From contig CAYGYG010000013.1 in NCBI GenBank assembly GCA_964354155.1, forward strand, positions 3,696 through 67,695: a stretch of 64,000 nucleotides of DNA, written 5' to 3'. Shown here in pieces: positions 10,233 through 44,105 of the stretch. The notes under the pieces are model-generated. The model made no database searches. It was not told where the DNA came from and worked only from the letters and a program-made list of their open reading frames with translations. The DNA comes from an uncultured bacterium (GTDB lineage: Bacteria; Hydrothermota; Tepidihabitantia; SM23-42; CAYGYG01). The position numbers and the translations under genes are program-made. How positions within the stretch are numbered: position 1 is the stretch's first letter; every line of letters starts with the position of its first letter.

Positions 10233-11347
10233 GGGGACGTTGGTTCCGCACGCACAATTCCTCTTGACCAAAGGACACGGCCGGCTATCATCTGGTTAGC
10301 TTGACTATTGCTATGGCAAGAAAACCAAGACTCGATGCGCCGGGCGCCCTGCATCACATAATCGCCCGGGGTATTGACCGGCAGAGGATCTTCACGGGCC
10401 ATTCCGATTGCATGGACTTTGTGCGCAGGGTGGCCGAGGTAGCGAACGACCTCAAGCCGCAGATCTACGCGTGGGTCTTGATGCCGACCCATTTCCACCT
10501 CTTGCTGCGAACCGGTAATGCGGGCTTGTCGACCGTGATGCGACGCTTGATGACTGGTTACGCGGTGGGATTCAACCTGAGGCACACAAGATCAGGTCAT
10601 TTGTTTCAGAACCGATACAAGTCGTTACTGTGTCAGGATGATCCATATCTCTTGGAGCTCACTAGGTATATCCATCTGAATCCGGTACGCGCCGGGTTGC
10701 TTTCAAGTCTAGAGCAGCTCGATGTCCACCCGTGGTGCGGTCACGCCGTGTTGATGGGCAAGGCGACTTACGCATGGCAGAATGTAGATGCGATACTCTC
10801 GCGATTCGGCCCGAGTCTGAGGGTCGGCCGGCGTGTCTATCGCGACTTTCTGGAGGACGGCCTGTCCAGGAATCAGCCGGCGGGAGACCTTCACCGCAGC
10901 ATCGGCCGGGAAAGCGGTGAGTGGTCGCGAGTACTGTCACGACAGCGACGGAGCGAAAATGCAGCGAGCGATACCCGGGTCTTGGGCAGCGATGATTTCG
11001 TCGAATCGGTGGTCGCGGAGGCCGAACGTCTGGAAAAAAATAGCTTGCGGCTGATGAGGGTGAGGCCGACCGTGGATCTGCTGTGCGGTAGCTTGGCCCT
11101 GGGCCATGACCTTGAGCCTGCTGAAGTGACATCCGGAGCCAAGCGCCGGAAGGTGATTAAGGCCCGGAAGGATGTTGTCTTTATTGCCATGAAGAAGCTC
11201 GGTTATAGCGGAGCCGAGGTCGCACGGCATCTGGGCGTAAGTGCGTCATGCATAAATCGAATTGCGGCCGGCAGCGAGTTGAGCCCGGTCGGCAAGAAAA
11301 TCTTGGACCTGCTGAAAACGTAATGTACTCTCGGAACCAACGTCCCC
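10233..11347 (+). mobile_element. Y1-transposase element bounded by perfect 16-bp terminal inverted repeats, with internal promoter
   Basis: GGGGACGTTGGTTCCG (10233-10248) and CGGAACCAACGTCCCC (11332-11347) enclose one transposase ORF and a TTGACC-N16-TATCAT promoter (10264-10291). No obvious target-site duplication. Confidence 0.8.
10313..11323 (+). CDS. REP-associated-type tyrosine (Y1, HUH) transposase with C-terminal helix-turn-helix
   Basis: MARKPR..PG.LHH, MPTHFHLL (HUH), HLFQNRYKS, RYIHLNPVRAG (catalytic Tyr). C-terminal DnaA-C-like HTH. Confidence 0.88.
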   Translation: MARKPRLDAPGALHHIIARGIDRQRIFTGHSDCMDFVRRVAEVANDLKPQIYAWVLMPTHFHLLLRTGNAGLSTVMRRLMTGYAVGFNLRHTRSGHLFQNRYKSLLCQDDPYLLELTRYIHLNPVRAGLLSSLEQLDVHPWCGHAVLMGKATYAWQNVDAILSRFGPSLRVGRRVYRDFLEDGLSRNQPAGDLHRSIGRESGEWSRVLSRQRRSENAASDTRVLGSDDFVESVVAEAERLEKNSLRLMRVRPTVDLLCGSLALGHDLEPAEVTSGAKRRKVIKARKDVVFIAMKKLGYSGAEVARHLGVSASCINRIAAGSELSPVGKKILDLLKT

Positions 11348-14890: not shown

Positions 14891-15928
14891 ATGAAAAAGG
14901 TTTTGATCTGTGTCTGTTTTCTCGTCTGCCTTTTTGCGGAAGACGTGACATACATGGTAAAACAGGGCGACACCCTGTGGGACATCGCCGGATTCTACTA
15001 CCAGAATCCCTACCTTTGGCCGGTCATCTGGAACGCGAACCTTGAGAAAGTCAGTGATCCCCACTGGATCTATCCCGAGCAGGTTCTGATCATACCGCCG
15101 TCACCGGAGTCGACCCTGGCCGGGGACTCGGTACCGATTGTTGCGCCGGAGACGCTCGTTATCGTTGAGGAGGACACGACTACCTACACGTACTATGCGC
15201 CGAAACCCCACGGACAAGAGATCGAAGTATCTTTTGTCGCGGCCGATAGGAAGGTCTTTTCCGAGGAGCTCATCCATCGCTGTGGCTATCTTGCGGAAGA
15301 AGAGATCATTGCCGCGGCGAAGATCATTCGCAGTGAGCCGGAGCGGGAGCGCATTACCAACTTTATGAAGGTCTATGTCGACCGCACGACGCCGGAAACC
15401 AATGTGGGCGACGTTTACAGCATCTACCGGATGGGTGACGTGGTCGACGACCCGGCCACCGGGCAGTACCTCGGCAAGGTCGTCGACATTCTCGGCAAAT
15501 TGAAGATTGAAGAGGCGGCCGAAGGCGGCACCCGCGCCCAGGTTACCGTTTCCCACGATATCATCAAGCCGGGCGAGCTGCTCGTGCCCTACCCGAAGTT
15601 CGAGATCCCGACCAACGTCACGCTGAAGGTGACCAGCCGCTTGCTCGAGGGGCAGGTTGCCTACGTCCGGAGCAAGACGACCTTGACGCAGAATTATACG
15701 ATCGTTTTCCTCAATGTCGGGGCCAACAGTGACGTGACGATCGGCGACGTATTCCGCATCTATGAAGAGAAGACGTACGGCGGCCGCAAACTGCCCGACC
15801 TTTCCGTCGGCGAGGTGCTGGTGGTCAACGCACGGCCCAGCTCATGCGTCGGCCTTGTCTCCTGGCGCCGCTTGACGCACAAGATCGTGCGCGGTGACAA
15901 GGTGCGGTTGTACCAAGAGGCGCATTGA
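14891..15928 (+). CDS. Exported LysM peptidoglycan-binding protein, TsaP-like architecture
   Basis: Signal peptide, VKQGDTLWDIA..Y.NPYLWP.IW..N....DPHWIYP LysM, beta-rich C-terminal domains. Confidence 0.85.
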   Translation: MKKVLICVCFLVCLFAEDVTYMVKQGDTLWDIAGFYYQNPYLWPVIWNANLEKVSDPHWIYPEQVLIIPPSPESTLAGDSVPIVAPETLVIVEEDTTTYTYYAPKPHGQEIEVSFVAADRKVFSEELIHRCGYLAEEEIIAAAKIIRSEPERERITNFMKVYVDRTTPETNVGDVYSIYRMGDVVDDPATGQYLGKVVDILGKLKIEEAAEGGTRAQVTVSHDIIKPGELLVPYPKFEIPTNVTLKVTSRLLEGQVAYVRSKTTLTQNYTIVFLNVGANSDVTIGDVFRIYEEKTYGGRKLPDLSVGEVLVVNARPSSCVGLVSWRRLTHKIVRGDKVRLYQEAH

Positions 15929-16392
15929 TGCAAGAGCAGGCACTGCTCAAAGGCATCTACCTGTTTCGCGAACTCACGCCCAAGGAGACCGATCTGGTCA
16001 TTTCGATCTCCAGGGAGCAGACGTACAAAAAGAATGCTGTCATCTTCAAAGAAGGTGAAAAGGGCGATGCCTTTTACGTCGTGGTCTCGGGCTCGGTCCG
16101 GATCTCGACGATTGTGCCGGGGGTAGGTGAGGAGGCACTGACCGTGCTGCGGAGCGGCGAATACTTCGGTGAGATGGCGCTGATCGACGACGCGTCCCGC
16201 TCGGCCAGTGCGATCGCCAACGAAGACACGCTTCTGATATCGATTGCGAAAAAGGACTTCGAGAATCTGCTGGCGAAGAACACCGACCTTGCCTACAAGC
16301 TGCTCTGGGTATTCACGAGAACCTTGTGTAGCCGGTTGCGCAAGACGGATGAACAGCTCAAGTCGATATTCGCCATCGCGAAGAACTTCTGA
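15928..16392 (+). CDS. Stand-alone cyclic-nucleotide-binding domain protein
   Basis: IFKEGEKGD.FY.V.SG.V, GEYFGEMAL....RSASA.A. Confidence 0.92.
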   Translation: MQEQALLKGIYLFRELTPKETDLVISISREQTYKKNAVIFKEGEKGDAFYVVVSGSVRISTIVPGVGEEALTVLRSGEYFGEMALIDDASRSASAIANEDTLLISIAKKDFENLLAKNTDLAYKLLWVFTRTLCSRLRKTDEQLKSIFAIAKNF

Positions 16393-16398
16393 TCGCGC

Positions 16399-16728
16399 AT
16401 GGCCGATACGTTCTTTTTGCTCGTCTTCCTGAGCGTCCTCGTCGAGCGCGTCAGCGAAAAACTGCTATACCTTCTGCCGGGGAAGAGGCGGGTGTGGGCC
16501 TGGGTTGTTTCGACAATCCTTGCGCTCCTGATCACCTTTCTCTTCCGGGTCGGCCTGCTGGGCATGATGGGGTTTGCCGCCTCGTCCGGAACCGCCAGCC
16601 GACTCGACTACGTAATCACGGCGCTTTTAATTGCCTCGGGCAGCGAACCGATTCATGTTCTGTTTCGGACGCTCGAGTACAAGAAAGAAGAGATAAGAGG
16701 AAAGGCGAAAGCCGCGAAGGATGCTTGA
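16399..16728 (+). CDS. Small membrane protein with about 3 transmembrane helices, holin-like pattern
   Basis: Hydrophobic segments. VITALLIASGSEPIH resembles the TG..ISRGSN..HD motif of putative holins (weak). Confidence 0.6.
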   Translation: MADTFFLLVFLSVLVERVSEKLLYLLPGKRRVWAWVVSTILALLITFLFRVGLLGMMGFAASSGTASRLDYVITALLIASGSEPIHVLFRTLEYKKEEIRGKAKAAKDA

Positions 16729-19700
16729 GTTTTTCTCCAGCCATGACCGAGAAAAGATCCTCGAGAAGGCTCGGAAACTGAAGGCGGACGGACGGGTCGA
16801 GCAGGCGATCAAGACGCTGGAAAGCTCGGTCTCGTCCTCGCCGGAGGATTTCGACCTGTATCTCGAACTGGGACGCTACTGCTTTGAGGGCGGACGGAGG
16901 ATTGATGCGGTCGCGGCCCTGCGTAAAGCCCTTGCTCTGGACAGCCAACGCGCCGATGAAGTGGTCGGCACGCTCACCGATCTTCACTACCGGGGTTCAT
17001 CGCCCATTGAGACCGGGGATGCCCTGCTCGAGATGTACATCGTCCGCCGCGATTTTGAAGAGGTCGAGCGGACGCTGAAATCGCTGTCCACCAAGGATCT
17101 GCAGTTCCTCGAGACCCGGTATCTCAAGATTTTCGAAAACACCTACAAGAACAAGAATCCGGCCGAATACACCGCCCGGGAAACCAACATCCTCCTCCAG
17201 CTGGCGAGCGTCGAGATTTTCATCGGACGCATGGAACGCGGCTTTGAGCTGGCCGAGAAGTTCTTGGGCGTCAAGGAGAGCGAGCGGCCCGCGGTCCAGA
17301 ACTGGGCCAAAAGCGTGTGCCGGTGGAAGTGGGGCAAGGCGCTGTCCCAGTTCTACTTGATGCGCCTGCTGCTGGCCGCCCAAAAATACGAGGAAGCGCT
17401 TCAGGTTGCCCAGCGCGCGGTCGAATTCGACAAGACCTACAGCCTGCGGATTCACGAGGAGTTTGCGAAAGTCGCGTTGCCGCCCAAAATCCAGGTCGAG
17501 TTTCTTTCGTTTCTCTCTTCACTTGAGGTCGGCGCCAAGGACATCGACGGTGCGATTGCCAACTTGAACCGCCTGCTCAATCTTGATACCGGGCGCACCG
17601 ACGACGTCATCCGCGGCTTCCGCGATCTGTTGCGGATGGCCCCAAAGGAGTCGAAGGTCATTTTTGCCTTGGGCGATGCCTACCTTCACGCCAAGCGGAG
17701 CGGCCTTGCGGTCGAGGAGTATGCCAAAGTACTGGAGATCGATCCCGAGAAGACCGATGAGGTCCTAAGTCGATATCAGGCCGTGCTCAAGGTCGATTCC
17801 AAAAACCCGCAGGTGATCGCCGCCTTAGTCGAGGGCTATCTGGCCAAGAACGACATCGCCAAGGCGACCGAAGTCATTGATCAGTCCTACCAGGCCGACC
17901 CGGGACTGATCGAGGAGTACCTGCCGAATCTCAATACGATTCTCGATCGCGACATGAACAACATGAAGGCGCTCAACCTGCTGGGGCTCGTCTATCTCAA
18001 GAAGGGCGAGATCGATAATGCGATCCTGATTTTCGAGAACCTCTTGAGCCGGGGCAGCGAGGGGCAGGTCCTGGCCGAGGCCGGCAGCCGGGCCGTACTG
18101 CTGGCGATGTCGGATAGTATCCCGGCCCTGAAAGTGTTGACCGACGCGCTGCTGCTGCAGGGCCGCGGGCCGGAAGCCCTCAAGCTCATCGGCGGGCGGG
18201 TCAAGGCCGACCCGGCGACCGCCCTGGAGCTCGTCGCCAAGCTCGACGCGATCCTCAAGGCCGACCCGGCCTTGATCGAGTCGGGCCGCGGCATCTACGA
18301 GGAATTCAAGATCCAGGATGAGTTTCTGGTCGGCCTGGTCGTGGGACGCAGTTTTGCCTACCAGAAAAACTACGCCCGGGCGCAGGAATCGTTCCAGAAG
18401 TGCCTGGCCCTCGACCCGGCGCGCCACGATCTGGTGAAGAAAGTGCTGATGGAGCTGGTTCAGGACGACTCGAAGGCGGTTCCGCTCATGGTTTACATCG
18501 CCCGCATCTTCCTTAAGGAAGGCGACATCGAGAAGAGCGCCCGGTTCTTCCGGGCCGCGCAGATGGTCGACCCTTCGATCTTCGCTGAAATCATCGATGA
18601 TTTCTACGACATCGTCAAGGCGCACCCTGAGGACGTCATGATGCGGCGGCTGTTGGTCGAAAGCCTTCTCAACAAGGGACTTTTCGACCGCACGATCGAG
18701 GAATGCCGGATAACGACCGAAGCGGTAAGTCCGGCGGACGGCGCGTATTTCCACTTAAAACAGGCCCAGGCGATGCTGGCGAAGGGTCGGCTGACCGACG
18801 CGGTGCGTCCCTTCATGCTCGCCCAGGAGCATAACGTCAACTTCACCAACGAGGTCATCGGCGGCCTGGAAAAGATTCTATCGATCGACAAGAACAACAT
18901 TGCGGCCCACTTCGCGCTCGGCCGGGCCTACGGGGCGGCGCGCATGGTCAATAAGGCGGTCGAGGAACTGCTCCTGACCGCCCGCATCGTGCCGACCCGG
19001 GTCAGTTACGTCATGGACGAACTCAAGAGGCTTGAGACGCTGGCCCCGGCCAACGCGATGGTCCATTTCGCCCAGGGGTTGCTCCACGTCAGCCAGAAAA
19101 ACTTGAAGGAAGGCATCGGCGAGCTCGATCAGGCCCGGGAGATGGACAAGAGCCTGCTCGACAAGATCATCCCGGTCTACGAGAAGCTCGAGACCGAGGG
19201 GACGTCGCCCGAGCTCCTCCTGAGCCAGGCGCGCGCTTACTCGGACAAGGGTTCGTACAACTTCGCGGTCGACTTCTTCCGGAAGGCGTTCGAGAGCGAC
19301 CCCGGGCGGCTCGAGCAGATTGTTTCGGGGCTCAAGACGATCTGTACCGTCCAGCCGGACAACGCCGAAGCACGCCGGCTCCTGGCGCGGATCTACTTTG
19401 ACTACAACGCGCTGGACGATGCCGTCTCGGTGGCCCGCGAAATCTATGGTTCGAGTGCCACCCACCGCATCTGGGCGATCGACTTTGCGCGCGAAGTGCT
19501 GACCAAGAATCCCCAACACATCCCGACCTACTATTTTCTAGCCGAGCTATGCTTCGACGAGGGTAAATTCAAAGAGGGAATCGAAACGCTGGAGCGGCTC
19601 CGGGGATTCGCCCCGCACGAAGTGCCGGCGATGATCGACCGGGCGGAAGCGGTCTACCAGAACAACCAGTATGTGCCGGAGATCGTGATTTTCCTGGCCG

Positions 19701-20497
19701 ACCGCTATACCGACGTCTCGCTCGAGCAGAAGTCAGTGGCGTTCTTGAGGAAACTCTATAATACCAACGCGGCATTTGCCGATGCGGTACTCCACCGGCT
19801 CCGCTATATTCTCAAGAAGAAGCCGGACATAATCGACGGCTACTTCCTGACCGCCGACATTCTGAGCGCCCAGAACGATTTCCAGCGGGCCCGCGAAGCG
19901 CTCGAGTTCGGCGAGCGTTACGCTACCGGGATTCAGGACAAGGTCGAACTGCGGCTCCGGCTTGCGAATTTGCTCAACCTGCTGGGCGACCGCGCCGGAG
20001 TGAGCAGCACGCTGATGAAAGCGCTGCGCATCGCGCAGAACAAAGGCTCGGTTTACCAAACCATCAGACAATTGCATGAGAAGAGCCTGACCAACCGCCT
20101 CGAGGTGCTGCGCCGCGAGACGAACGAAGACAGCCGTCTCGAGATGGTGCGTATCCACCTGGCGTTGGGTCAGCTCGATGAGGCGGAACAGTTTCTCGTT
20201 TTCGTACCCTCGGGCAACGAAGTGCGCCGCGCCCAGGCGCTGCTGAGGGCACGGGTCTACCTGGCGCGGAATCGCGCCCTCGACGCCCTTGAAGTCTTGA
20301 GGCCGCACAAGGACGATGAGCGGATCGCCCTGGCGTTAGCTGATGCCCACGAAAGCATGGGTAACTACGCGGCGGCGGTTGCGACACTCAAGGCGCTGGG
20401 CCGGCCTGAATTTCTCGGCCGCATCAAGGTGGATGAGACGAAATTGATTGAATCTTTGCTATCGGGCAAGAAACGGGTCTTAGAAGGGAGGCGCTAA
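16721..20497 (+). CDS. Very large tetratricopeptide-repeat protein (1258 aa)
   Basis: Many TPR-like helical repeats (ALGDAYL, LGLVYLKKG, AHFALGRAY). No signal peptide. Confidence 0.85.
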   Translation: MLEFFSSHDREKILEKARKLKADGRVEQAIKTLESSVSSSPEDFDLYLELGRYCFEGGRRIDAVAALRKALALDSQRADEVVGTLTDLHYRGSSPIETGDALLEMYIVRRDFEEVERTLKSLSTKDLQFLETRYLKIFENTYKNKNPAEYTARETNILLQLASVEIFIGRMERGFELAEKFLGVKESERPAVQNWAKSVCRWKWGKALSQFYLMRLLLAAQKYEEALQVAQRAVEFDKTYSLRIHEEFAKVALPPKIQVEFLSFLSSLEVGAKDIDGAIANLNRLLNLDTGRTDDVIRGFRDLLRMAPKESKVIFALGDAYLHAKRSGLAVEEYAKVLEIDPEKTDEVLSRYQAVLKVDSKNPQVIAALVEGYLAKNDIAKATEVIDQSYQADPGLIEEYLPNLNTILDRDMNNMKALNLLGLVYLKKGEIDNAILIFENLLSRGSEGQVLAEAGSRAVLLAMSDSIPALKVLTDALLLQGRGPEALKLIGGRVKADPATALELVAKLDAILKADPALIESGRGIYEEFKIQDEFLVGLVVGRSFAYQKNYARAQESFQKCLALDPARHDLVKKVLMELVQDDSKAVPLMVYIARIFLKEGDIEKSARFFRAAQMVDPSIFAEIIDDFYDIVKAHPEDVMMRRLLVESLLNKGLFDRTIEECRITTEAVSPADGAYFHLKQAQAMLAKGRLTDAVRPFMLAQEHNVNFTNEVIGGLEKILSIDKNNIAAHFALGRAYGAARMVNKAVEELLLTARIVPTRVSYVMDELKRLETLAPANAMVHFAQGLLHVSQKNLKEGIGELDQAREMDKSLLDKIIPVYEKLETEGTSPELLLSQARAYSDKGSYNFAVDFFRKAFESDPGRLEQIVSGLKTICTVQPDNAEARRLLARIYFDYNALDDAVSVAREIYGSSATHRIWAIDFAREVLTKNPQHIPTYYFLAELCFDEGKFKEGIETLERLRGFAPHEVPAMIDRAEAVYQNNQYVPEIVIFLADRYTDVSLEQKSVAFLRKLYNTNAAFADAVLHRLRYILKKKPDIIDGYFLTADILSAQNDFQRAREALEFGERYATGIQDKVELRLRLANLLNLLGDRAGVSSTLMKALRIAQNKGSVYQTIRQLHEKSLTNRLEVLRRETNEDSRLEMVRIHLALGQLDEAEQFLVFVPSGNEVRRAQALLRARVYLARNRALDALEVLRPHKDDERIALALADAHESMGNYAAAVATLKALGRPEFLGRIKVDETKLIESLLSGKKRVLEGRR

Positions 20498-22851
20498 TGA
20501 AATGCCCCTTTGTGTCCAGGGTCGTAAGGAAGATTACTTCGAGAGTGGATGCCCAGGGAAAAGTAATCGGGGATGATGTCGTCGAAACCAACGAAACGGC
20601 GGAATGCCTGCGCGACGAGTGCATGGTCTATGATAAGTCCAACGCGAGTTGCTCGCTCTTTGTCTCTAACTTGAGGGCCGGCCAGCTTCTGGCCGAACTG
20701 AAGAAGAGCAGCACGGAAATGGGGAAGGCGCTGTTTGAGCGCACCGAGACCCTGGGCGTCATCTACTCGACCAATTTTCAGACGCTGCAGGATGCGGTGT
20801 TGTCCAAGCTCGACCTGATTCGTAAGAGCAACGAGATCATGGCGATGGGGTTGGATCGCACGAGCGGTAGTCTCGCCGAAATCATCGAAAGTATCGGCAA
20901 ATTGAACATACCGTTGTCGGCCAACGCGGAGAGCGGCAAGACGCTGGAGAAACTGATCGGCGTAATGGATAACGGGCTCAGGAACGGCCTGGCGTCGCTC
21001 AGTACCGATTTGAAAGGCGTCCTGATCACGGTGCATAACGAGAGCAAGCAGAGCCTGGCCCAGCTGGGTGAAGCCTTGAAGAAGGATTTGACCCCGATGG
21101 TCGAAGACCTGAAGAGCGTCCGCGCCGCCAGCGAAATTTTTGTCCAGTTTACGAACAACGCCCTGGGCGGGATCGGCGATATCTCCAAGAGTGTCGACCT
21201 GCTTGACGTCCACGTGAACAACGCCTTCAAGGAACTTGGTACGAGAGTGGAGAGCGACATCAAGTTCCAGGGCGAAGTCGCCGGACAGGAAACGCAGAAG
21301 GCGCTCAAGGTGAGCGAGCATTTGGTGGAGCTTTCCTCGAGCACGGTCAATTCCTTGAGCGAGGTTCTGAACAAGATTGGGACGGTTGGTGAGCAGCTGT
21401 CGGGTCGGCTCGGGAATCTCGACGAGCACACCGCCGCCGTGCTCAAGGAGACGGCGAGCGGCCTCGGCGATTATTTGAGGCATGAACTCCAGCCGGTGGC
21501 GCATGAGCTGGTTGCCGGCCGGGCGGCGAGCGAGGCGGCACTTCAGTCTTTAAATATGGTGATCAACAGCCTGACCGATGTGTTCAAGGGCGTCACGACC
21601 CTCGACGAGACGGCGACCAAGGGGCTGGGCACGGTCGCGGTCGGTCTTGAGGCGGTTGCCGGGCAGGTCGGGAATCTCGGGGGCAAGCTTGACGGCATGG
21701 AGAAAAATATGGTTGTGGTCGGAGCCCAGCAGCAAGCTGCCTTCGATGGTTTCGCCCAGAGTGTCAAAGATATGGCCGCGGCGCTGGACAAGTCCTACCA
21801 GTCGATTGTCCAGTACGCCGGCCAGCAGACCGAAATGTCGTCCAGCGTCGTCATCCATTTCAAGGCGCTTGAAGACAGCCTGCGGGCCATGTCCGAAGAG
21901 GGCGATACGCCGCTGCGCGACATCGCCCACGAGCTTGAGAAACTGCAGACCATGCTCCACGACCGGCTCGAAATCTACAAAGTAGGGCTGGAAGGGCTGT
22001 TGGCGCTGGAGAAGAAGGGTTTTGACCGCAATGCCGAGGCGATCGATGCGCTCAGAGCCGAGTACGGCCAGACCGTGGTTGCGCTCACTGATGCGGCGCG
22101 TTCGATTCATGAGACCGAAACCGAGCTTAAGAGTTTCACCGGCAAGACGGCGGATGCGCTTAATGACAACATCACCCGGGTGACCAGCGAGCTGTCGATC
22201 TTCCAGACCGAGCTGGCGCGCTACATCAAGGAAAACATCGGCCGTTTCACCGAAATCGTTGAACAGCAGAAATCCATTGCCGAAGGCAGCCGGACGGCTT
22301 TCGAAAGCATGAACACGGTCTTCAAGAAGCAGGAAGAGCAACTGAAAGCCCAGGAAAGAACCAGCGTGCTCCAGCAGGCGCAGGTCCGGAACGACCGGGC
22401 GACGGTGATGTTCCACCGCGGCAACTACGACGCTGCACTGCTCGAGATTGACGAAGCGCTGAAGATTGAAGAATCGGCCGAGTATCACAACAACCGCGGC
22501 CTCATCCTGAGTGAGATGGGCCGGCCCGATGACTCCCGTAAGGCGTTCCAGAAGGCGATCGAGATGGCTCCGTCAATGAGCGAGCCTTACAATAACCTTG
22601 GTCTTTTATATCTTAAGATCAAAGACTACGACAGCGCGGTGGCCACGTTCGGCGAGGCGACAAAACGCAACATCAATTACGCCGCGGCCTTCACCAATCT
22701 GGGCCATGCCTTCGCCGCCAACGAGAGCTTCGACGAGGCAATCAAGGCCTGGGAAAAGGCGCTGACGATTGATCCGACCAATCATGACGCCCGTGAGGCT
22801 TTGAAGCTGTACAAGGAAGGCAGGGTCGATGGATATACTGCAGAGACTTAA
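20497..22851 (+). CDS. Cys-rich N-terminal head, long amphipathic coiled-coil/helical region, C-terminal TPRs
   Basis: MKCPF...CLRDEC.....C head, heptad-rich middle, HNNRGL/YNNLGL/FTNLGH TPRs. Confidence 0.8.
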   Translation: MKCPFVSRVVRKITSRVDAQGKVIGDDVVETNETAECLRDECMVYDKSNASCSLFVSNLRAGQLLAELKKSSTEMGKALFERTETLGVIYSTNFQTLQDAVLSKLDLIRKSNEIMAMGLDRTSGSLAEIIESIGKLNIPLSANAESGKTLEKLIGVMDNGLRNGLASLSTDLKGVLITVHNESKQSLAQLGEALKKDLTPMVEDLKSVRAASEIFVQFTNNALGGIGDISKSVDLLDVHVNNAFKELGTRVESDIKFQGEVAGQETQKALKVSEHLVELSSSTVNSLSEVLNKIGTVGEQLSGRLGNLDEHTAAVLKETASGLGDYLRHELQPVAHELVAGRAASEAALQSLNMVINSLTDVFKGVTTLDETATKGLGTVAVGLEAVAGQVGNLGGKLDGMEKNMVVVGAQQQAAFDGFAQSVKDMAAALDKSYQSIVQYAGQQTEMSSSVVIHFKALEDSLRAMSEEGDTPLRDIAHELEKLQTMLHDRLEIYKVGLEGLLALEKKGFDRNAEAIDALRAEYGQTVVALTDAARSIHETETELKSFTGKTADALNDNITRVTSELSIFQTELARYIKENIGRFTEIVEQQKSIAEGSRTAFESMNTVFKKQEEQLKAQERTSVLQQAQVRNDRATVMFHRGNYDAALLEIDEALKIEESAEYHNNRGLILSEMGRPDDSRKAFQKAIEMAPSMSEPYNNLGLLYLKIKDYDSAVATFGEATKRNINYAAAFTNLGHAFAANESFDEAIKAWEKALTIDPTNHDAREALKLYKEGRVDGYTAET

Positions 22852-23200
22852 GTCGCAGAAGAAAGACAAAGACAAGGGCAGCGTCCTGTCGTCGATCTTC
22901 GAAAAGACGGAAAAAGAAGAAGCGAAGAAAGACAACGCGGTTGACCCGGACATCACGCACATTGACAAGCCCAAACCGGAAGAGAAGGTTGTCTTCCGCG
23001 AAGAGCGCATCATCAGCCGGCCGCAGACTTTTCATTCGGATGGTCTGCGCGAGTTCGACCTCGAGAGCCTGAAGGCCGATGAAGGTGCAACTCTGAAAGC
23101 GGCCTGTGCCCAGAAAGTCAACGTGCTCATTATCGACGGGAAGTTCGAAGAGGCAATCGGCGAAATCACGGCGCTCGAAGCAAAGCTGGCCTCGAAGTAG
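22829..23200 (+). CDS. Hypothetical charged protein
   Basis: Overlaps the upstream stop (translational coupling). Lys/Glu-rich with a helical C-terminus. Confidence 0.65.
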   Translation: MDILQRLKSQKKDKDKGSVLSSIFEKTEKEEAKKDNAVDPDITHIDKPKPEEKVVFREERIISRPQTFHSDGLREFDLESLKADEGATLKAACAQKVNVLIIDGKFEEAIGEITALEAKLASK

Positions 23201-23408
23201 CTGTCGAGCAATTTGGCAATCAGGCAACTAAGCTATCAGGCAATTGTGCGATCGAGTTAATAAGCTATTAAGCTATGGAGCTATTGATCCTTAACTCATT
23301 GCTGCTCTTTTCGCTACTCGCTACTCTCTACTTCGGGCTCTCTACTCCCTGCATTCTCCCCGCTACCTGGCATAACCCATAACCCATAAGCCATTGCGCT
23401 AAATCGGT
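23201..23408. repeat. Short-period degenerate repeat tract (GGCAAT, AAGCTAT, CTACTC, CATAACC)
   Basis: Related tracts at 30960-30985, 35515-35545, 37808-37847 and 43255-43310. Confidence 0.6.
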
Positions 23409-25046
23409 ATGGCTTCCCTCGACACCAAATTCCTTTTCGTCACCGGCGGCGGCGCCGCGTCGCTGGGCAAGGGCTTGATCAGCGCTTCGATCGGGCTGTT
23501 GCTCAAGTCGCGCGGCCTGCGCGTCGCGATCCAGCGGGTTGATCCCTATCTCAATGTCGACAAACGCACCGTGGACCCGGCGCTGCACGGCGAGATTTAC
23601 CTGACCGAAGACGGGGGCGAGGTCAGTTTTCACGTCGGCGATTACGAACGTTTTCTCAATGAGCCGCAGAGTTCGGAGCATTCGATCACGGTCGGTCAAA
23701 TCTACCACTCGGTCCTGCTCAAGGAGCGGCGCGGCGGGTACGGCGGCCACCTGGTCCGCATACGGCCGGACGTGGTCGACGAGATCAAGGCGCGCCTGAC
23801 GCGGCCGGCGCTGGCCAAGAAACCGGACGTGCTCATCACCGAGATCGGCGGCAGCATCAATGACATCGACACCCTGCCGTTTCTCGAGGCCTCCCGGCAG
23901 TTGTCGATTGAGCTTGAGGCCGATGACGTGCTGTTCATTCACATCGTCCTGGTGCCTTATGTCCGGGTGTCGAAGCGGTACGAGACCAGCGGTGCCTGTC
24001 AGAGCATCCGTGATTTGCGGTCGTGGGGGATTGAACCGAAAGTGGTCATTGCCCGCTCGGAATCGCCGTTGCCCAGCGCGTCACGGCAGGAGATTTCGCT
24101 GGTCAGCAGCGTGCCGATCGACGCCATTTTCGAGGCGGTGGATGTCGAGAGCATCTACGAGATCCCGCAGAACTTGCATCGGCAGGGACTGGACCGCACC
24201 ATCGCCAAGGTCGTCAACCTCAAGACCAAGGAGCCGGACTTCACCGAATGGAACCTGTTTCTCCAGCGTATGAAGACGCCCTTCCGCGTCTGCGAGGTTG
24301 CGGTCTGCGGCTCGACGACGATGCACCGCAACTCCCACCGCAGTCTGGTTGAGGCCTTGAATCACGCCGCGGTTGCCAACAACATCAGGTTAAGACTGTA
24401 CTGGCTGGATACGAGCACCGTGACCAATCCCGAGCAGATCGCGACGATGTTGCAGAGTGTGGCCGGCGTTATCCTGGTCGGGACCGCGGTCGGGCCGAGT
24501 ATGGACGGGGAGATCAACGTGAGTGAATACGCGCGGACCCAGGGTAAGCCGTTTGTCGGCATCGATTTGGGATGCCATGCGGCCCTGATTGAATTCGCGC
24601 GCAACGTCGGCGGCTTGAGGCACGCCGATACCCAGGAACTCAATGAGAACAGCCGAGTTCCGCTCATCCAGGCGGTGAGCAATCCCCGGCGGCCGGCCGA
24701 GGCACTGAGTGGGGGTGCGATGCGGCTCGGCTCCTGTGCGGTGAGTCTCGTCGACAATACCCTGGCCAGTCAGATTTACCGCAAGCGCGAGGTCACGGAA
24801 CGTTTCCGGCATTGTTTCGCCCTCAATCCGAAATATGTCAAAAGGTTGGCCAAGGCAGGGATGGTGGCGAGCGGGATCTCGTCGCGGCGACGGTGCCACG
24901 ATTTCTTCGAGCTCAAAGCGCACCCGTTTTTCGTCGGCGTCCAATATCACCCGGAATATCGTTCAACGCCCCTCGCACCGCATCCGATCTTCTACCAATT
25001 CCTTAAAAAGGTGATCAAGCTCGCCGAAACGGTTAGCGGCAAGTAG
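23409..25046 (+). CDS. CTP synthase (PyrG)-like protein with degenerate active sites
   Basis: Colinear with PyrG (FVTGG..SLGKG, DPYLNVD, YERF, EIGG, MRLG, QYHPE). GICLG is replaced by GIDLG, PGGFG by VGTAV and KTKPTQ by ETSGAC. Confidence 0.85.
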   Translation: MASLDTKFLFVTGGGAASLGKGLISASIGLLLKSRGLRVAIQRVDPYLNVDKRTVDPALHGEIYLTEDGGEVSFHVGDYERFLNEPQSSEHSITVGQIYHSVLLKERRGGYGGHLVRIRPDVVDEIKARLTRPALAKKPDVLITEIGGSINDIDTLPFLEASRQLSIELEADDVLFIHIVLVPYVRVSKRYETSGACQSIRDLRSWGIEPKVVIARSESPLPSASRQEISLVSSVPIDAIFEAVDVESIYEIPQNLHRQGLDRTIAKVVNLKTKEPDFTEWNLFLQRMKTPFRVCEVAVCGSTTMHRNSHRSLVEALNHAAVANNIRLRLYWLDTSTVTNPEQIATMLQSVAGVILVGTAVGPSMDGEINVSEYARTQGKPFVGIDLGCHAALIEFARNVGGLRHADTQELNENSRVPLIQAVSNPRRPAEALSGGAMRLGSCAVSLVDNTLASQIYRKREVTERFRHCFALNPKYVKRLAKAGMVASGISSRRRCHDFFELKAHPFFVGVQYHPEYRSTPLAPHPIFYQFLKKVIKLAETVSGK

Positions 25047-25186: not shown

Positions 25187-25214
25187 CCCCGTTAGACTGG
25201 AAGTCTAAACGGGG
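25187..25214 (+). repeat. 28-bp hairpin repeat CCCCGTTAGACTGGAAGTCTAAACGGGG, copy 1
   Basis: Identical copies at 25339, 31149, 36206 and 42125; 5'-truncated copy at 40723. Confidence 0.9.
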
Positions 25215-25237
25215 TAATCGACGATGTTTCATCGCTC

Positions 25238-25338: not shown

Positions 25339-25366
25339 CCCCGTTAGACTGGAAGTCTAAACGGGG
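25339..25366 (+). repeat. 28-bp hairpin repeat, copy 2
   Basis: Identical to copy 1. A diverged copy follows at 25428-25458. Confidence 0.9.
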
Positions 25367-25579: not shown

Positions 25580-27568
25580 ATGAAGATTTTGTCGCTTGTT
25601 TTCGTCGCTCTGGTTGCTGCCGGCTTCAGCACGCCGCCGCAACTTGATCTGGTGCGCATCGACATCAGCCACCCCGACCAGGTCAAAGAACTGGATCGGG
25701 CCGGAATCATCATCAACTCGGTCGCCCCGGATCACGTCGTCGCCGAGATCGAGCGGTCCGAGTATTTGTCCCTGGCGGCGCGTGGTTTCCACGCCAAGCT
25801 GCTCCAGGAGAATATCTCCGGGGTATACTACGCAAACAGCCTGACCAAGTCGCCGTTCGGCCGGTATCTCACCTATACCGAATTCCGGGATTCGATGATC
25901 ACGATCGCCGGCAACAATCCCGGCATATGTCGTCTCGAGACGCTGGGCACGACGGCCCAGGCCCGTCTTATTCTAAGCATGAAGATCTCAGACAACGCCG
26001 CGGTCAATGAACAGGAGCCGCCGGTCCATTTCGACGGGGACACGCACGGCGACGAGAAGTGCGGTTGGGCGGCCTGCTGGGAGATGATCAAGTACCTGGT
26101 CAGTCGCTATACCACCGACACCCTGGTCGCCCGGCTGGTCAATACCCGGGAAATCTACATCGCGCCGATGTTCAACCCGGACGGGTTCAATTCCGGCAGC
26201 CGCTACAACTCCCGCACCGTCGATTTGAATCGTAACTGGGGCTGGATGTGGGGCAACGAATCGGCCTGCGGCGCCGACTTCATGAGCGAAAACGAAACCC
26301 GGGCCTTCATGGCCCATTTCTGGCGCCACCCGTTCGCGACCTTCATCTCCTATCACGGCGGCACGTTGATGATTTCCGAGCCCTGGTCCTACACCGACCG
26401 GATGGTCCTGCCCGAGAGCGTGCTCATTCACCATCTTTCGAGAGGCTACCGTTCCTACACCAACTATCCCTATGGTCAGGGTTCGATCGTCATGTATCTC
26501 ATCAACGGCTCTTCCAAAGACTACAACTACGGCTGCGGCGGCGAGATGGGATGGTCGGTTGAAGTCTGCATGACCAAGACCCCGCCGGCCGATTCGATCG
26601 ACCGGATCTTCGCGCGCGACGGCCCGGCGATGCGCTACATCATGAACAAGGCCGGGTTCGGCATTCACGGCCGGGTCACCGATTCGGTTACCGGTGCGCC
26701 GCTCTATGCCCACATCATGGTCGGCCCGACCAACGTCATTTCTCACAGCTGTCCGACCAACGGCGACTATCACCGGTTCTACCTGCCGGGCACCTACAGC
26801 CTTACCGTCCGGGCGCCGGGCTACGACCCCAAGACGATCAGCAACGTCGTTGTACCGAACAATACGCGTGACTCGTCGGTCACGGTCAACGTCGGGCTGA
26901 GACGCAATACCACTGCCCGGGTCTATGCGACGCGGGTCATCGGCAGCCAGTGGGTGACGACCACGTCGAATCTTACTTATCCGTACCGCGCCGTAGGTCC
27001 GCAGGACGGCCAAGCCTACCAGCTGGATGCGACCAAGTGGATCGTGCTGGCGATGGACGTGCCGATCAAGAACGTCTCGGGCAATGACTTCACGGTCTAC
27101 CGGTCAAGCGGCACCGGCACGGCGACGGTGCGCATCGGCAATTCCTGGTCCGGGTCGTGGTCCATCGCCGGTACCGCCAACGCCGCCGCCACATCATTCG
27201 ACATCGCCTCAACCGGACTCGATTCGGCGCGTTACGTCCGGCTGGAAGCGGCAAGCCAGTTCATGCTCGACGCGATCGAGGCATCGCAGCGGGTCGGCGT
27301 CGCGGAAGAACCGAGGGTCGTGCCACCGGTCATCGACGATTTCCGCATCTGGCCCAACGTAATGCGGAGCGGCTCGAAAGTTAACTTCGCCAACCCGCTG
27401 GCCAAGCCCGCCGAAGTGACCATCTACAATGCCGCGGGCCGTAAGGTCTGTGCTTTGACCATCCCGGTCCGTGTCTCGAGCGTGCCCTTTGCGGACCTTG
27501 CCGCCGGCGTCTATTTCGTCGGGCTTGAGGGCGCCGCCGCGCGGGCGCGAATCACCGTCGTACAGTAG
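25580..27568 (+). CDS. Exported M14 zinc carboxypeptidase with regulatory domain and T9SS-like C-terminal tail
   Basis: Signal peptide, HGDE, NPDG..R.N...DLNRN, SYHGG, WSVE catalytic Glu, LAAGVYFV tail. Confidence 0.88.
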   Translation: MKILSLVFVALVAAGFSTPPQLDLVRIDISHPDQVKELDRAGIIINSVAPDHVVAEIERSEYLSLAARGFHAKLLQENISGVYYANSLTKSPFGRYLTYTEFRDSMITIAGNNPGICRLETLGTTAQARLILSMKISDNAAVNEQEPPVHFDGDTHGDEKCGWAACWEMIKYLVSRYTTDTLVARLVNTREIYIAPMFNPDGFNSGSRYNSRTVDLNRNWGWMWGNESACGADFMSENETRAFMAHFWRHPFATFISYHGGTLMISEPWSYTDRMVLPESVLIHHLSRGYRSYTNYPYGQGSIVMYLINGSSKDYNYGCGGEMGWSVEVCMTKTPPADSIDRIFARDGPAMRYIMNKAGFGIHGRVTDSVTGAPLYAHIMVGPTNVISHSCPTNGDYHRFYLPGTYSLTVRAPGYDPKTISNVVVPNNTRDSSVTVNVGLRRNTTARVYATRVIGSQWVTTTSNLTYPYRAVGPQDGQAYQLDATKWIVLAMDVPIKNVSGNDFTVYRSSGTGTATVRIGNSWSGSWSIAGTANAAATSFDIASTGLDSARYVRLEAASQFMLDAIEASQRVGVAEEPRVVPPVIDDFRIWPNVMRSGSKVNFANPLAKPAEVTIYNAAGRKVCALTIPVRVSSVPFADLAAGVYFVGLEGAAARARITVVQ

Positions 27569-27597
27569 GGCCTGCGAAGGAGCGAAATAGCAGCGCT

Positions 27598-27652
27598 GAC
27601 CAGATGACCAGAAGATCAGTGGGAAGGGTACCGGCAGATCAGGTGATCAGTG
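27598..27652 (-). repeat. Left inverted arm (CTGAT family) of four-helix-bundle cassette 1
   Basis: Reverse complement aligns ungapped to 28072-28126 at about 36/55 positions (hand count). Confidence 0.7.
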
Positions 27653-28062
27653 TGAAAGATGGGGGAGGATCAGAATCACAGTATAATGCTATCGCAGGTT
27701 TTGAGAGACTGTGGGTGTGGCAGAAATCACACCGGCTCATGCTTGAAGTCCACTCTCTCTGCAAGAAACTGCCCAGGATTGAGAGGTTCAAGATCAGAGA
27801 CCAGTTGGAGCGTTCCTCATGCTCGGTTCCGGACAACATCGCTGAAGGCCACACGAGCTACTACTATCAGGACAAGATCAAGAGCTTCAATATCGCCCGA
27901 AAGGAAGCAGGGGAAACCCAGAATCATATTAGGAGTCTGCAGGGCAAGGGTTACCTACCAGCCGGGGATGCTGACGATTTTGTTAAGCGTTATGAAGAGG
28001 TCATCAAAGGGATCAACGGATATATCAATTGGGTGAAAGAGAAGAAGGGCGCCCGAAAATGA
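27652..28062 (+). CDS. Four helix bundle protein (23S rRNA intervening-sequence protein/bAvd-like family)
   Basis: FE.L.VWQKSH, FKIRDQLERS..SVPDNIAEG, IARKEAGET. GTG start at 27652 after AGGTGA. Confidence 0.88.
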   Translation: MKDGGGSESQYNAIAGFERLWVWQKSHRLMLEVHSLCKKLPRIERFKIRDQLERSSCSVPDNIAEGHTSYYYQDKIKSFNIARKEAGETQNHIRSLQGKGYLPAGDADDFVKRYEEVIKGINGYINWVKEKKGARK

Positions 28063-28071
28063 ACGACACGC

Positions 28072-28272
28072 GTCTGATGTGCTGATATGCCGATATCCTG
28101 GCTACTGATATTCGGATATCCTGATATGCTGCCTTCGGCATCGATTACAGTGATGGCAGGACTGAGATCCCTCGCTGCCCTCGGGACGATGTAAACATCG
28201 GATTACGATGATTCATTGCTGATTTCTGCTGTGCTGATACCCTGCCCACTGATGCCCGGATGCGCTGATATG
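28072..28272 (+). repeat. Right arm of cassette 1 (28072-28126) and a second direct CTGAT-family copy (about 28222-28272)
   Basis: CTGAT/CCGAT/CGGAT recur at 8-12-nt spacing. An inverted ATCACTGTAATC unit lies at 28143-28155. Confidence 0.7.
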
Positions 28273-28295
28273 CTTGAACTAATGAGGTCAACCCC

Positions 28296-29654
28296 ATGAT
28301 CGCTCTCTTGATCGTCTTTGCGTTCACGCCTTACTACTTTGTTCACAACAGCGATCCGCAGATCGGGCGATCCCCGGAAGGCGAGCCCAACCTGGATTCA
28401 GCCGTTGCCCAGATCGGGCGGATGCAGCCGGCGCCGAGCTTCATATACGTGGCCGGTGACATCTCCGACAACCCGCTGGATTCGGCCATCGTCCATGACC
28501 AGTGGACGCGTGCTCGGACGCGTTTCAACCGGCTCTCGATTCCTAAGTACTACGCGGCCGGCAACAACGACCTCGGGTATCCGAGCGAACTGGAAAGCGT
28601 GCCCAGGATGCTATATTGGTATCGCAACTTCTGGGGGCCGGACTGGTACTCCTTTGACCGCGACTCCTGCCACTACATCGTCCTCAACTCGACCCTGCTG
28701 GACGTGGCCAGCGGCCATGTCCACTACCCGGCGTCGCTGGCCCAGGACAGTTTCTTGCGCAGCGACATCCAGTCCATCCAGGGCCGGCGCTGCAAGCATC
28801 TCTTTTTTCTCTACCATTTCCCGACTTACATCAGCACACCGGACGAAGCCAATCAGACCGGCAATGTCCACCGGCCGCGTCGCGACACCATCCTCAAGTA
28901 CGTGCGCAACAACGGCTTCAGCGCGATTCTTGCCGGCCACATCCACGCCGACGGCCAGACTCTATATCGTTCCGCGGTGCTCCAGGCCGGCCTGGCCACT
29001 TGCACCGGGCCCCTGTCCAGCACCGGCTACCGGGTTGTGAAAGCATTCCATAATGGGATAGAGACCTTCACCGTCTTTCTCTCGGCCCCGTTCGACAGCG
29101 TGCCTATGGTCAATATCGTCACGCCCACGGCCAGCCCTGAGACCGTCGTGGTCAACCAGACGGTTTCGTTTCAAGCGGGCGTCGATACGGTGCGCTTCCC
29201 GGATTGGCGCGGGTTGTCCTTCCGGTGGAATTTCGGTGACGGCGACAGCTCGTGGGTACGGACCACGTCACATGTCTACCGGGATACCGGCAACTATCTC
29301 GTTGCGTTCACCGGTTACCAAGCGCCGCGCAAGGCGGCCAATTATCATCTCAGGATTCGCGTGAATCCGCCGTCGCTCGTTGGAGGTGCCAGGCCCGAAT
29401 TGCGGGACGGACGTACGGTGATCTTGAGCGCGGTGCTTGCCGGCGCGGTCGCGTTTGAAACGGCTGAACCGGGAAGAGTCACGCTTGCGCTCTACTCCAG
29501 CGACGGACGAAAAGCCGCGATTCTCATGGACCGCTATCTTGAAGCTGGTCGGCACCGGGCGGCGGTTCCATCCCGGCTGGCGGCCGGCGTCTATTTCGTC
29601 GAGCTTGCCACACCCTTTGAACGAGCAGTGAAGAAGACAATTCACCTGCGTTAA
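28296..29654 (+). CDS. Exported calcineurin-like metallophosphoesterase with PKD domain and C-terminal sorting-like tail
   Basis: SDPQ, GDISD, GNND, HFP and GHIH motifs; W.FGDG PKD; LAAGVYFV tail. Confidence 0.8.
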   Translation: MIALLIVFAFTPYYFVHNSDPQIGRSPEGEPNLDSAVAQIGRMQPAPSFIYVAGDISDNPLDSAIVHDQWTRARTRFNRLSIPKYYAAGNNDLGYPSELESVPRMLYWYRNFWGPDWYSFDRDSCHYIVLNSTLLDVASGHVHYPASLAQDSFLRSDIQSIQGRRCKHLFFLYHFPTYISTPDEANQTGNVHRPRRDTILKYVRNNGFSAILAGHIHADGQTLYRSAVLQAGLATCTGPLSSTGYRVVKAFHNGIETFTVFLSAPFDSVPMVNIVTPTASPETVVVNQTVSFQAGVDTVRFPDWRGLSFRWNFGDGDSSWVRTTSHVYRDTGNYLVAFTGYQAPRKAANYHLRIRVNPPSLVGGARPELRDGRTVILSAVLAGAVAFETAEPGRVTLALYSSDGRKAAILMDRYLEAGRHRAAVPSRLAAGVYFVELATPFERAVKKTIHLR

Positions 29655-30644: not shown

Positions 30645-31148
30645 CGGATAGAATGTAATTTGAGAGCTTGTAGGGCTTTGTTCCATGCGTGGAGGCGTGG
30701 ACTCGCTCTTAAGGTAAATGGGGGAATCCCCAGCAGGTCCGCGCAATAATCAAATACGTGCGTTCTTTGCCGCACTCGGTTCTTAGCGGTCTATCACCGG
30801 CACCGATTGATGTTATCGCTGTGATCGGTTTTCTCGTCATCACTGTGATCAGCGGTTCTATCACTGTAATCGAACGCGCAGCGTGTGTAACCGAGGCGGG
30901 CGAAGCCTGCTGAAGCAGGGAACAGGATACAGGGCACAGCAATCAGGGAACCAGCATTGAGCGTACAGAGTAGCGAGTAGAGAGAAGCGACAGAAAACGC
31001 AATCCGTTTCGTCTATCGTCCTAGTGAGCGTAGCGAACGATCGTCCTTAGTCCGTCGCCCGTATCTCCCGATCTTCCGACCGCTGATACCCCGTCCACTG
31101 ACCATCTGATGTCCTGATCCGCTCACCTTCGGCGTTCATCACTGCCTG

Positions 31149-31176
31149 CCCCGTTAGACTGGAAGTCTAAACGGGG
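31149..31176 (+). repeat. 28-bp hairpin repeat, copy 3
   Basis: Identical to copy 1; lies directly upstream of the hicBA promoter (TTGACG-N16-TATAAT, 31210-31237). Confidence 0.9.
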
Positions 31177-33968: not shown

Positions 33969-34190
33969 CGCTTCTTGTAGCTTCTCCTGTGTCCATCCTG
34001 TATCTTGTGTCGTTCATCTTGTTTCATGCCTTGCATATCGTGTATCGAGTATCCTGGATCTTATCTCGTGTCATTCTCGTCGTTCCTGCTTCGCATCATG
34101 TATCCTGGATCCCATGCCGTTCTCTTTTATCGTGTATCCTGTATCGAGTATCATTCTTTTCCATCGTGTATCATGTATCGTGGATCAGGC
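33969..34190 (+). repeat. Heptamer (TATCNTG-like) periodic tract; an inverted block lies upstream of the gene at 33541-33567
   Basis: tatcgtg-tatcgag-tatcctg-gatc blocks. Upstream ggatgca-cgatgca-ggatact-cgatag is the reverse-complement pattern. Confidence 0.8.
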
Positions 34191-36832: not shown

Positions 36833-37116
36833 CGGTCTAAGGTTCTAACGCTTTTAATGTGCTCAACGCTCCTATCACTGTAATCGTGTTTTCTTATCAC
36901 CGTAATCGACGATGCTTCATCGCTGTAATCGATGTGCCTCCGGCACAAACGTTCTAACGATATTAACGTTATAACCCTCTTCATCACTGTAATCAGCCTT
37001 TCTCATCGCTGTAATCGATTCCGCTTCAGCGGAAACCAAATAAACTTGATAAACCAGATAAACCAAGAGAACGTTCCTAACGCTATTAACGATATTAACG
37101 GCAGATGCTTCATCGT
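36833..37116. repeat. Mosaic spacer: five ATCA/GCTGTAATC units, TTCCGCTTCAGCGGAA hairpin, AAACCA tract, TAACG tracts
   Basis: Units at 36872, 36894, 36917, 36981 and 37003; hairpin at 37019-37034. Confidence 0.8.
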
Positions 37117-43198: not shown

Positions 43199-43408
43199 TG
43201 AACGTGGCTGAGGGTTTTGCTCGTGAGACCGACAACGAATTCATCCGCAGCTTGGCTACCTGGCAGCCTGGCAACTGGGCAATCGGGCAATCGAGCAACG
43301 GGGCAAAGAGCAGGACATGGAATGCTGGAACGGTGCGTTGCACCGCAATGACGCTCTGACGCAATGACCCAATGACGTTTTTTCTTTTTCTGACCCAATG
43401 ACTCTTCC

Positions 43409-44044: not shown

Positions 44045-44105
44045 TTCGCGACCATCTGTTTGGATTTGACCCCAGAGGGTCTTGACTCTTAACAAGGAGG
44101 GCTAT

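Follow-up and report, generated by a model that had tools for sequence, protein, structure and literature searches.

A full-length CTP synthase homologue with non-canonical active sites is under purifying selection in an uncultured sediment lineage

A 64-kb stretch of DNA from an uncultured bacterium (contig CAYGYG010000013.1, hereafter the window, to whose whole length all nucleotide positions refer) carries a gene for a CTP synthase (CTPS, PyrG) homologue with both active sites altered. The gene (23409..25046, plus strand, as are the domains and motifs given below) encodes an intact protein of 545 amino acids, P0001. It is under strong purifying selection, and we are highly confident that P0001 is a selected protein that does not carry out canonical CTP synthesis. 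The initial annotation had described an enzyme in which both active sites were rewritten. Both are indeed non-canonical, but they appear to have met different fates, the synthetase site having been rebuilt and the glutaminase site having decayed. Residues with the prefix "ec" follow the numbering of the E. coli enzyme, and those given as aa follow P0001.

By its sequence, P0001 is an unambiguous full-length member of the CTPS superfamily. The 545 codons run without interruption, and Pfam recognises the two expected domains, CTP_synth_N (aa 7-271, 4.5e-88) and a class I glutamine amidotransferase (GATase; aa 309-533, 9e-20), so that the intact, full-length reading frame reported at the outset is borne out. 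The protein scores above the NCBIfam cut-offs of both PRK05380 (562 bits vs. 308) and TIGR00337 (517 bits vs. an equivalog threshold of 462.75), and its closest sequence match in the PDB is the CTPS of Thermus thermophilus (3e-123). It has the same length and architecture as the solved enzymes (e.g., 1vco, 1s1m, 4zdi), to which it is 34-38% identical, and is ca. 43% identical to the enzymes of WOR-3. Modelling with AlphaFold2 from an alignment of 40 sequences (predicted local distance difference test score 89.2, predicted template modelling score 0.89) predicts that P0001 folds correctly, like bacterial CTP synthases. Foldseek aligned this model with template modelling (TM) scores of 0.93-0.95 to the enzymes of T. 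thermophilus, E. coli and M. tuberculosis (1vco, 8fve, 4zdj), and only residues 425-436, about where the canonical glutaminase lid loop sits, are poorly defined. Architecture, family scores and predicted fold are thus all those of PyrG. The amidoligase (ALase) domain covers aa 1-270 (23409..24218) and the GATase-like domain aa 296-545 (24294..25043). In the linker between them (aa 271-295, 24219..24293) E280, W281, N282, L283, F284, R287, M288, K289 and P291 are invariant among the close relatives of P0001, although the columns of this helix are mostly variable among canonical enzymes, W281 being the sole invariant one there.

These close relatives form a small clade. A search of 5.8 billion sequences gave four of them, with 54-69% identity to P0001, followed by a fall to ca. 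43% for ordinary enzymes, and a metagenome scan added one further member (L006) that is 90% identical. In a profile search of 1.84 billion representatives clustered at 50% identity the clade was a single cluster (1057 bits), the next match scoring 502 bits. The six sequences now known are all full length and intact, share 54-90% identity and are found in assemblies (NCBI, JGI and Logan) that derive from different samples. Another match from the metagenome scan (L007) was discarded as a canonical enzyme found by chance, and a scan of genome contigs with P0001 retrieved only canonical Hippea and Desulfurellales enzymes (38-40% identity). In the tree the clade is monophyletic (SH-aLRT 100), has a stem 0.87 substitutions per site long and falls together with the canonical enzymes of WOR-3 and Stahlbacteria (support 87).

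The ratio of nonsynonymous to synonymous substitution rates (dN/dS, Nei-Gojobori) between the window gene and L006 was 0.088 at a dS of 0.61, with values of 0.063 for the ALase domain and 0.125 for the GATase domain. Contigs from four independent sediment runs had no indel in the coding sequence, with an organism depth of 2-4x in all of them; the variants amounted to 7 synonymous and 6 nonsynonymous codons, all of the latter within the GATase half. That selection keeps this frame open had been supposed from its length; a dN/dS of 0.09 agrees with this, and the homologues do show purifying selection. All the sequencing runs containing the sequence were sediment metagenomes, and no RNA run with the gene was found among the runs searched.

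For the residues that matter in CTP synthesis we follow published work. The set for UTP phosphorylation consists of ecK18, ecK40, ecD72, ecE140 and ecG143 with Mg2+, while ecD42 contacts the uracil, ecD147 and ecE149 the ribose, and ecR211 and ecD303 the ribose of ATP (PMC8325340). The triphosphate of UTP or CTP is held by ecK187, ecK189, ecK223 and ecS14 (PMC10182726), and likewise by ecT188 (PMC8325340). In dmCTPS numbering the triphosphate contacts are K192/T193/K194 and the uracil/ribose contacts D40/D152/E154, and the activity of the K16A and K38A mutants of that enzyme, which are changed at the two lysines of the phosphorylation set, is strongly lowered (PMC8325340). Cys379 is the nucleophile of the glutaminase, Gly352 belongs to the oxyanion loop/lid, and ecP54, ecH57 and ecV60 form the NH3 gate (PMC9138612).

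Against this background, we compared five clade members with 115 canonical CTP synthases. Among the 178 columns at least 95% conserved in the latter, 88 are retained in every clade member and 55 are altered in at least four of the five, which on this alignment is far beyond chance drift for the family. The P-loop of P0001 reads GGGAASLGKG (23445..23474) for the canonical GGVVSSLGKG, keeping the ATP-binding lysine ecK18 and losing ecS14, a contact of the UTP alpha-phosphate. Within aa 43-57 (RVDPYLNVDKRTVDP, 23535..23579) ecK40 has become Arg, ecD42 is kept, and the DPGTM loop has turned into DKRTV with a new Lys-Arg pair, the canonical VDPGTMSP being VDKRTVDP (aa 50-57). At aa 71-82 (23619..23654) EVSFHVGDYERF stands for ETDLDLGHYERF, with ecD70 replaced by Ser, ecD72 by His and ecH75 by Asp, a set that is invariant in the clade. 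Farther on, KTKPTQHS is ETSGACQS (23982..24005; KTKPTQ to ETSGAC at aa 192-197), with loss of the triphosphate lysines and reversal of K187 to Glu, and ecK223, another triphosphate-binding lysine, is also Glu (aa 228, 24090-24092). In the GATase-like domain the former oxyanion loop is VGTAVGPS (24477..24500) for PGGFGxRG (PGGFG to VGTAV at aa 357-361) and is variable across the clade. The former nucleophile elbow is GIDLGCH for GICLGMQ (aa 384-390, 24558..24578), with D/D/G/N/D/D at the position of Cys379 in the six members, and the His-Pro-Glu of the former triad (ecH515/E517, 24948..24956) is retained. Every motif change that the initial annotation had listed (GIDLGCH, VGTAV, ETSGAC, EVSFHVGDYERF, VDKRTVDP) is therefore present, as are the SLGKG and HPE that it had found to remain.

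Over the clade as a whole, ecK18, D42, E140, G142/143, D147, R211, H515 and E517 are shared with PyrG, as is H57 in 5/6 members. The differences comprise K40R, D70S, D72H, H75D, Q114R, H118D and E185 to R/K on the amidoligase side; K187E, a variable K189, Q192 to C/Y, K223E and S14 to A/G in the triphosphate site; and D303N, Cys379 to D/G/N and a variable GGFG loop in the GATase part. Of the 268 other homologues compared, 261 or more carry the canonical residues at such positions. What is left of the glutaminase machinery (Cys379-His515-Glu517 triad and Gly351-Gly352 oxyanion loop) is the His and the Glu, and the site is, to judge from its residues, dead. The amidoligase set has kept K18, E140 and G143, with K40R and D72H invariant in the clade, and the UTP/CTP triphosphate site (K187-T188-K189, Q192, K223, S14) is changed at K187, K189, Q192, K223 and S14. 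Because of these changes in catalytic and triphosphate-site residues, the known CTPS reaction is not credible for P0001. A P-loop site of the ATP type may well have been preserved. That P0001 is clearly homologous to active enzymes but has lost key catalytic residues, together with purifying selection and conservation across intact orthologues, is what is expected of a pseudoenzyme. The Cys at +3 from the former nucleophile position was considered as a relocated nucleophile and ruled out; it is Leu in one clade member (P0005), and is therefore not a conserved replacement, and the oxyanion loop is gone.

The two halves of the protein have not changed in the same manner. In the ALase domain, 31 canonically invariant positions have changed in all six members and 14 of these are fixed to one new residue, the remaining changes being mostly conservative (I/L/V, S/A, R/K). 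In the GATase domain only one of the 12 positions changed in all six is fixed (D303N, an ATP-ribose contact) and the remaining changes are non-conservative. The difference between 14/31 and 1/12 gave p = 0.033 in Fisher's exact test, a marginal value with six sequences behind it. Since the replacement residues are fixed in the synthetase site and variable in the glutaminase site, the former looks rebuilt and under selection for its new residues, and the latter looks decayed, its pocket drifting freely while the GATase domain overall stays constrained. Among the new residues there are paired swaps (D72H with H75D, and E185R with K187E). Near the former UTP pocket, which lies at the tetramer interface where ecK187, K189 and K223 act in trans, the clade has gained basic (K52, R53, R117, R190) and acidic (D78, D121, E192, E228) residues.

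The reading that we favour, with a probability of ca. 0.45, is that P0001 is a nucleotide-binding, oligomeric and non-catalytic subunit with a regulatory or structural role, possibly co-assembling with a true PyrG. The kept P-loop lysine, the lost triphosphate residues and the clade-invariant new residues of the synthetase site support it. So do the predicted fold, the purifying selection, the restriction of nonsynonymous population variants to the GATase half, the contrast between the two domains, the long stem of a monophyletic clade, the gene order shared by four loci and a setting unlike that of canonical pyrG. P0001 would still bind a nucleotide, probably ATP, and would still form the CTPS-type oligomer, and the old UTP pocket, situated where the subunits meet, would have been refilled by self-complementary new charges; these three features together would make it a non-catalytic subunit of the kind proposed. 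It could act in response to nucleotides alone or with a true CTP synthase, and in a co-assembly its Glu187/Glu223 would reach into the UTP site of the partner. The glutaminase-like domain would be kept as a structural or allosteric module. The ideas on charge complementarity, binding and oligomerisation have been read from the sequence. There may also be a link to the TPR and envelope genes nearby; the neighbours of the CTPS-like gene are TPR, LysM, cyclic nucleotide monophosphate (cNMP)-binding, OmpA-like and LpxL-like genes.

Several points weigh against a non-catalytic subunit. The invariant new active-site residues would fit a new catalytic or ligand pocket equally well as a network of salt bridges, and a canonical PyrG in the same genome would be a presumed partner. 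The contrast between the two domains stands on the marginal test given above. The spacing upstream of the gene varies from 17 to 278 bp, which makes functional coupling to the TPR genes weak, and synteny among relatives of 54-90% identity may merely mirror shared ancestry.

The main rival, which we hold to be possible but on the unlikely side, is that P0001 is a neofunctionalised ATP-dependent enzyme in which the DTBS-like amidoligase domain still binds ATP and phosphorylates or ligates another substrate. This would have a base- or ribose-like moiety for D42/D147 and no triphosphate, and would be handled by a new constellation of His75/Asp78/Ser73/Arg53/Arg117/Asp121 (P0001 numbering); nitrogen would come from free ammonia, or the reaction would need none. 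The 14 canonically invariant ALase positions with identical new residues in 6/6 members, paired swaps included, would be well explained in this manner, as would the lowest dN/dS (0.063) being in this domain and the retention of the P-loop Lys, E140, G142/143, R211, D42 and D147. Relaxed, non-conservative change restricted to the glutaminase pocket is also what would be expected if just the nitrogen-donor half had become useless. However, two of the residues altered (K40R, D72H) are those of phosphoryl transfer, no biosynthetic or substrate-hinting genes are linked, and the entire dead GATase domain is still conserved, although it would be superfluous for a simple ligase.

A second alternative concerns the origin of the protein and is compatible with either a subunit or a new enzyme. 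P0001 might be the only pyrG homologue of its lineage, freed from its task by PyrJ (DUF1846) or by cytidine salvage and kept for a moonlighting function, which we consider rather improbable. PyrJ is a non-homologous, ammonia-only alternative CTP synthase, and ca. 31% of the genomes with pyrJ are reported to have no pyrG (bioRxiv 10.1101/2024.09.24.614635). Because such an alternative exists, being the sole pyrG homologue would not imply that P0001 makes CTP. The position of the clade beside the canonical WOR-3 enzymes fits an orthologue or a recent paralogue, and no canonical pyrG could be tied to the assemblies of the lineage among the candidates traced, whole genomes not having been searched. 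This absence reflects the lack of a real whole-genome search, however, and the collections hold just short or incomplete contigs for the lineage. The context of the gene speaks against it too. In five metagenome-assembled genomes (MAGs) that we looked up (L014, L015, L017, L020, L021/L022), whose enzymes are among the closest canonical matches to P0001, pyrG lies within kdsB-pyrG-kdsA-kdsD-lptC-lptA-lptB(-rpoN-hpf), and in the genome of P0014 it adjoins ffh-rpsP. The CTPS-like gene is in neither setting, and its context is unlike that of canonical pyrG. The kdsB-pyrG-kdsA-lpt clustering itself links CTP supply to CMP-Kdo and lipopolysaccharide export. Six enzymes (P0014, P0008, P0013, P0064, P0044 and P0019) were considered as the canonical PyrG of the same organism and rejected, as all come from other samples or MAGs. 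True relatives differ widely in GC content, and GC and tetranucleotide composition were therefore discarded as not diagnostic for tying the MAGs of the P0008 group to the lineage of the window.

It is very improbable that P0001 is still a working CTP synthase, fed by ammonia and using unconventional residues. It does score above the equivalog cut-offs and has kept K18, E140, G143, D42 and D147, the H57 gate (5/6) and the HPE on the tunnel side, but all three trans-acting triphosphate lysines have been lost, two of them by charge reversal, D72 is His and K40 is Arg where nearly all other homologues have the canonical residues, and Ala at the catalytic lysines strongly cuts dmCTPS activity (PMC8325340). 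A decaying pseudogene or an assembly artefact, to which the depth of only 2-4x in all runs and the number of substitutions at sites that are otherwise invariant might have pointed, is effectively refuted by the dN/dS and the indel-free contigs of four independent runs, along with six intact full-length orthologues (NCBI, JGI, Logan; different samples) and a confident structure prediction.

A bolder version of these ideas, which we put forward as speculation and hold to be less likely than not, is that the clade represents either a "poison or governor" subunit derived from CTPS or an enzyme of a new kind with a rebuilt pocket. As a governor, Glu187/Glu223 together with Lys52/Arg53/Arg117/Arg190 would permit nucleotide-independent tetramers, or heterotetramers with a true PyrG in which the UTP/CTP site of the partner is shut, coupling CTP supply to envelope biogenesis. 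As an enzyme, it would use the rebuilt pocket for an ATP-dependent reaction whose substrate resembles uracil or ribose and has no triphosphate. If true, either option would make this the first full-length CTP synthase to be described as neofunctionalised in a prokaryote; in the literature searched we found no account of a dead or rewired one from prokaryotes.

A non-catalytic subunit derived from an enzyme would have precedents. HisZ is a dead paralogue of histidyl-tRNA synthetase that regulates HisG, and PyrC' is an inactive dihydroorotase that serves as an obligatory structural subunit of the aspartate transcarbamoylase of Pseudomonas. Like P0001, both are full-length homologues of active enzymes that have lost catalytic residues and are under purifying selection, and PyrC' also belongs to pyrimidine synthesis. 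P0001 differs from them in that its former active site has fixed new residues instead of simple losses, and any partner enzyme would be a putative one. Filaments of CTPS offer another comparison. Those of Caulobacter CtpS shape the curvature of the cell. Assembly of such filaments (cytoophidia) is independent of catalysis (PMC5405848). P0001 likewise is predicted to have the CTPS fold, its value to the cell may lie in assembly instead of catalysis, its clade has an unusually invariant linker helix, and its neighbours include envelope and scaffold genes. However, the CTPS filament formers known to us are active enzymes, and bacterial species do not, to our knowledge, share conserved filament interfaces.

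Other metagenomic homologues have also lost the glutaminase nucleophile. Ca. 30 of the 149 top representatives are without Cys379, which has changed to G/S/D/N (for example P0128, P0138, P0257, P0230 and P0190). They share this loss with P0001 but branch elsewhere, most of them keep the UTP site, and none has the clade motifs EVSFHxGDYERF, NVDKR or ETxxAxQ. CTPS may thus have degenerated independently on several occasions, or some of these proteins may be ammonia-only variants. P0128 and P0138, which pair with support in the tree, have D72V, C379G and H515R and an intact KTKPTQ. The NCBIfam family NF004836 (CTP synthase C-terminal region-related (seleno)protein) shares the CTPS-derived GATase-like module, for which P0001 scores 127 bits, but it is a stand-alone family of 228 aa, P0001 is full length, and the score is below the 260-bit cut-off.

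The position of the gene right after a TPR operon, stated in the initial annotation, is the same in four loci. Upstream, two giant TPR proteins of 1258 and 784 aa are encoded (16721..22851, plus strand), which are syntenic in the relatives. They are followed by a charged small open reading frame (ORF) of 123 aa (22829..23200, plus strand), the immediate 5' neighbour of the CTPS-like gene in each of the four loci with upstream sequence. The order LysM, cNMP-binding, small membrane ORF, TPR (1258 aa), TPR (735/784 aa), small charged ORF (ca. 120 aa) and CTPS-like gene is shared by the window, L006 and L001, a relative with 60% identity (GCA_975958125.1). In L009 both the small ORF upstream and an M14 carboxypeptidase gene downstream are preserved, and the 64-kb contig of another relative (L013) stops inside the second TPR gene and is uninformative on the presence of the CTPS-like one. 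The gap in front of the CTPS-like gene measures 17, 117, 208 or 278 bp, and the long gaps are filled with unrelated short tandem repeats. In the window this spacer (23201..23408) consists of 7-8 nt units (GGCAATCA, TAAGCTAT, TCGCTAC, CATAACC) and its length varies between strains. No leader, riboswitch or attenuator is conserved 5' of these genes, and the upstream regions gave no Rfam match. Because the gap varies so much, the long gaps are repeat-filled and there is no shared leader, co-transcription with the upstream genes is plausible in L001 only.

A role in anti-phage defence was rejected, since PADLOC gave no support; P0001 had no defence-system match and its neighbours only domain-level ones (cNMP domain, coiled coil). 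The match of the 155-aa cNMP-binding protein (15925-16392) to Pycsar effector models is a domain-level one, confined to their cyclic-nucleotide-binding part, and the 784-aa TPR protein (20497-22851) is, in its N-terminal half, weakly like the tail region of ZorA (29 bits), probably a generic coiled-coil likeness. Downstream, the window has genes for an M14 carboxypeptidase, a 23S-rRNA-IVP four-helix-bundle protein and a metallophosphatase-PKD protein (25580-29654) between the CTPS-like and LpxL-like acyltransferase genes. All three are missing from L001 (11632-11995) and the M14 gene is present in L009, making this a lineage-variable insertion. A neighbouring alanine racemase has 50-55% identity to named proteins of WOR-3, and a few sequences that form a group with it are closer still. 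Proteins with a type A sorting domain of the type IX secretion system are encoded at 2-1339 and 44082-45491, consistent with an FCB-group or WOR-3-like organism, and a gene like those of tyrosine transposases associated with repetitive extragenic palindromes is found at 10301-11323.

Many intergenic spacers of the window are made up of tandem repeats with units of 7-9 nt that differ from one spacer to the next (e.g., 23215-23394, 28074-28131, 30916-30990, 34128-34186, 36948-37100 and 43247-43377), and such repeats also lie 5' of the gene in L006, L008 and L010. Their copy number varies by strain, with one 7-nt unit absent at 23370 and the block 23227-23338 replaced in run X1. A GC-clamped hairpin of 28 bp (CCCCGTTAGACTGGAAGTCTAAACGGGG), of which the window has 6 copies when up to 4 mismatches are allowed, occurs at 25187-25217 and 25339-25366, with further copies near 31149, 36206 and 42125. 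Its depth was 8-26x in four sediment runs, compared with 2-4x for the flanks, and because of this excess it must be multi-copy in the genome or the community.

CTP synthase is among the most conserved enzymes and is widely annotated by homology alone. As P0001 passes the equivalog cut-offs yet is without the residues for both half-reactions, annotation pipelines would, on the strength of this gene, wrongly credit the genomes of this lineage with a CTP synthase. The reach of the finding is limited to the six sequences known and to one uncultured sediment lineage. Within it, P0001 is a natural example of a protein in which one domain appears to have been rebuilt under selection while the pocket of its fused partner decays and the fold is kept, and it is a further candidate for a metabolic pseudoenzyme in bacteria, of which few are known. 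If P0001 were the only pyrG homologue, PyrJ or salvage would be the likely source of CTP in this WOR-3-related lineage. If it regulates or co-assembles with a true PyrG, the supply of CTP would be controlled at a level that is new.

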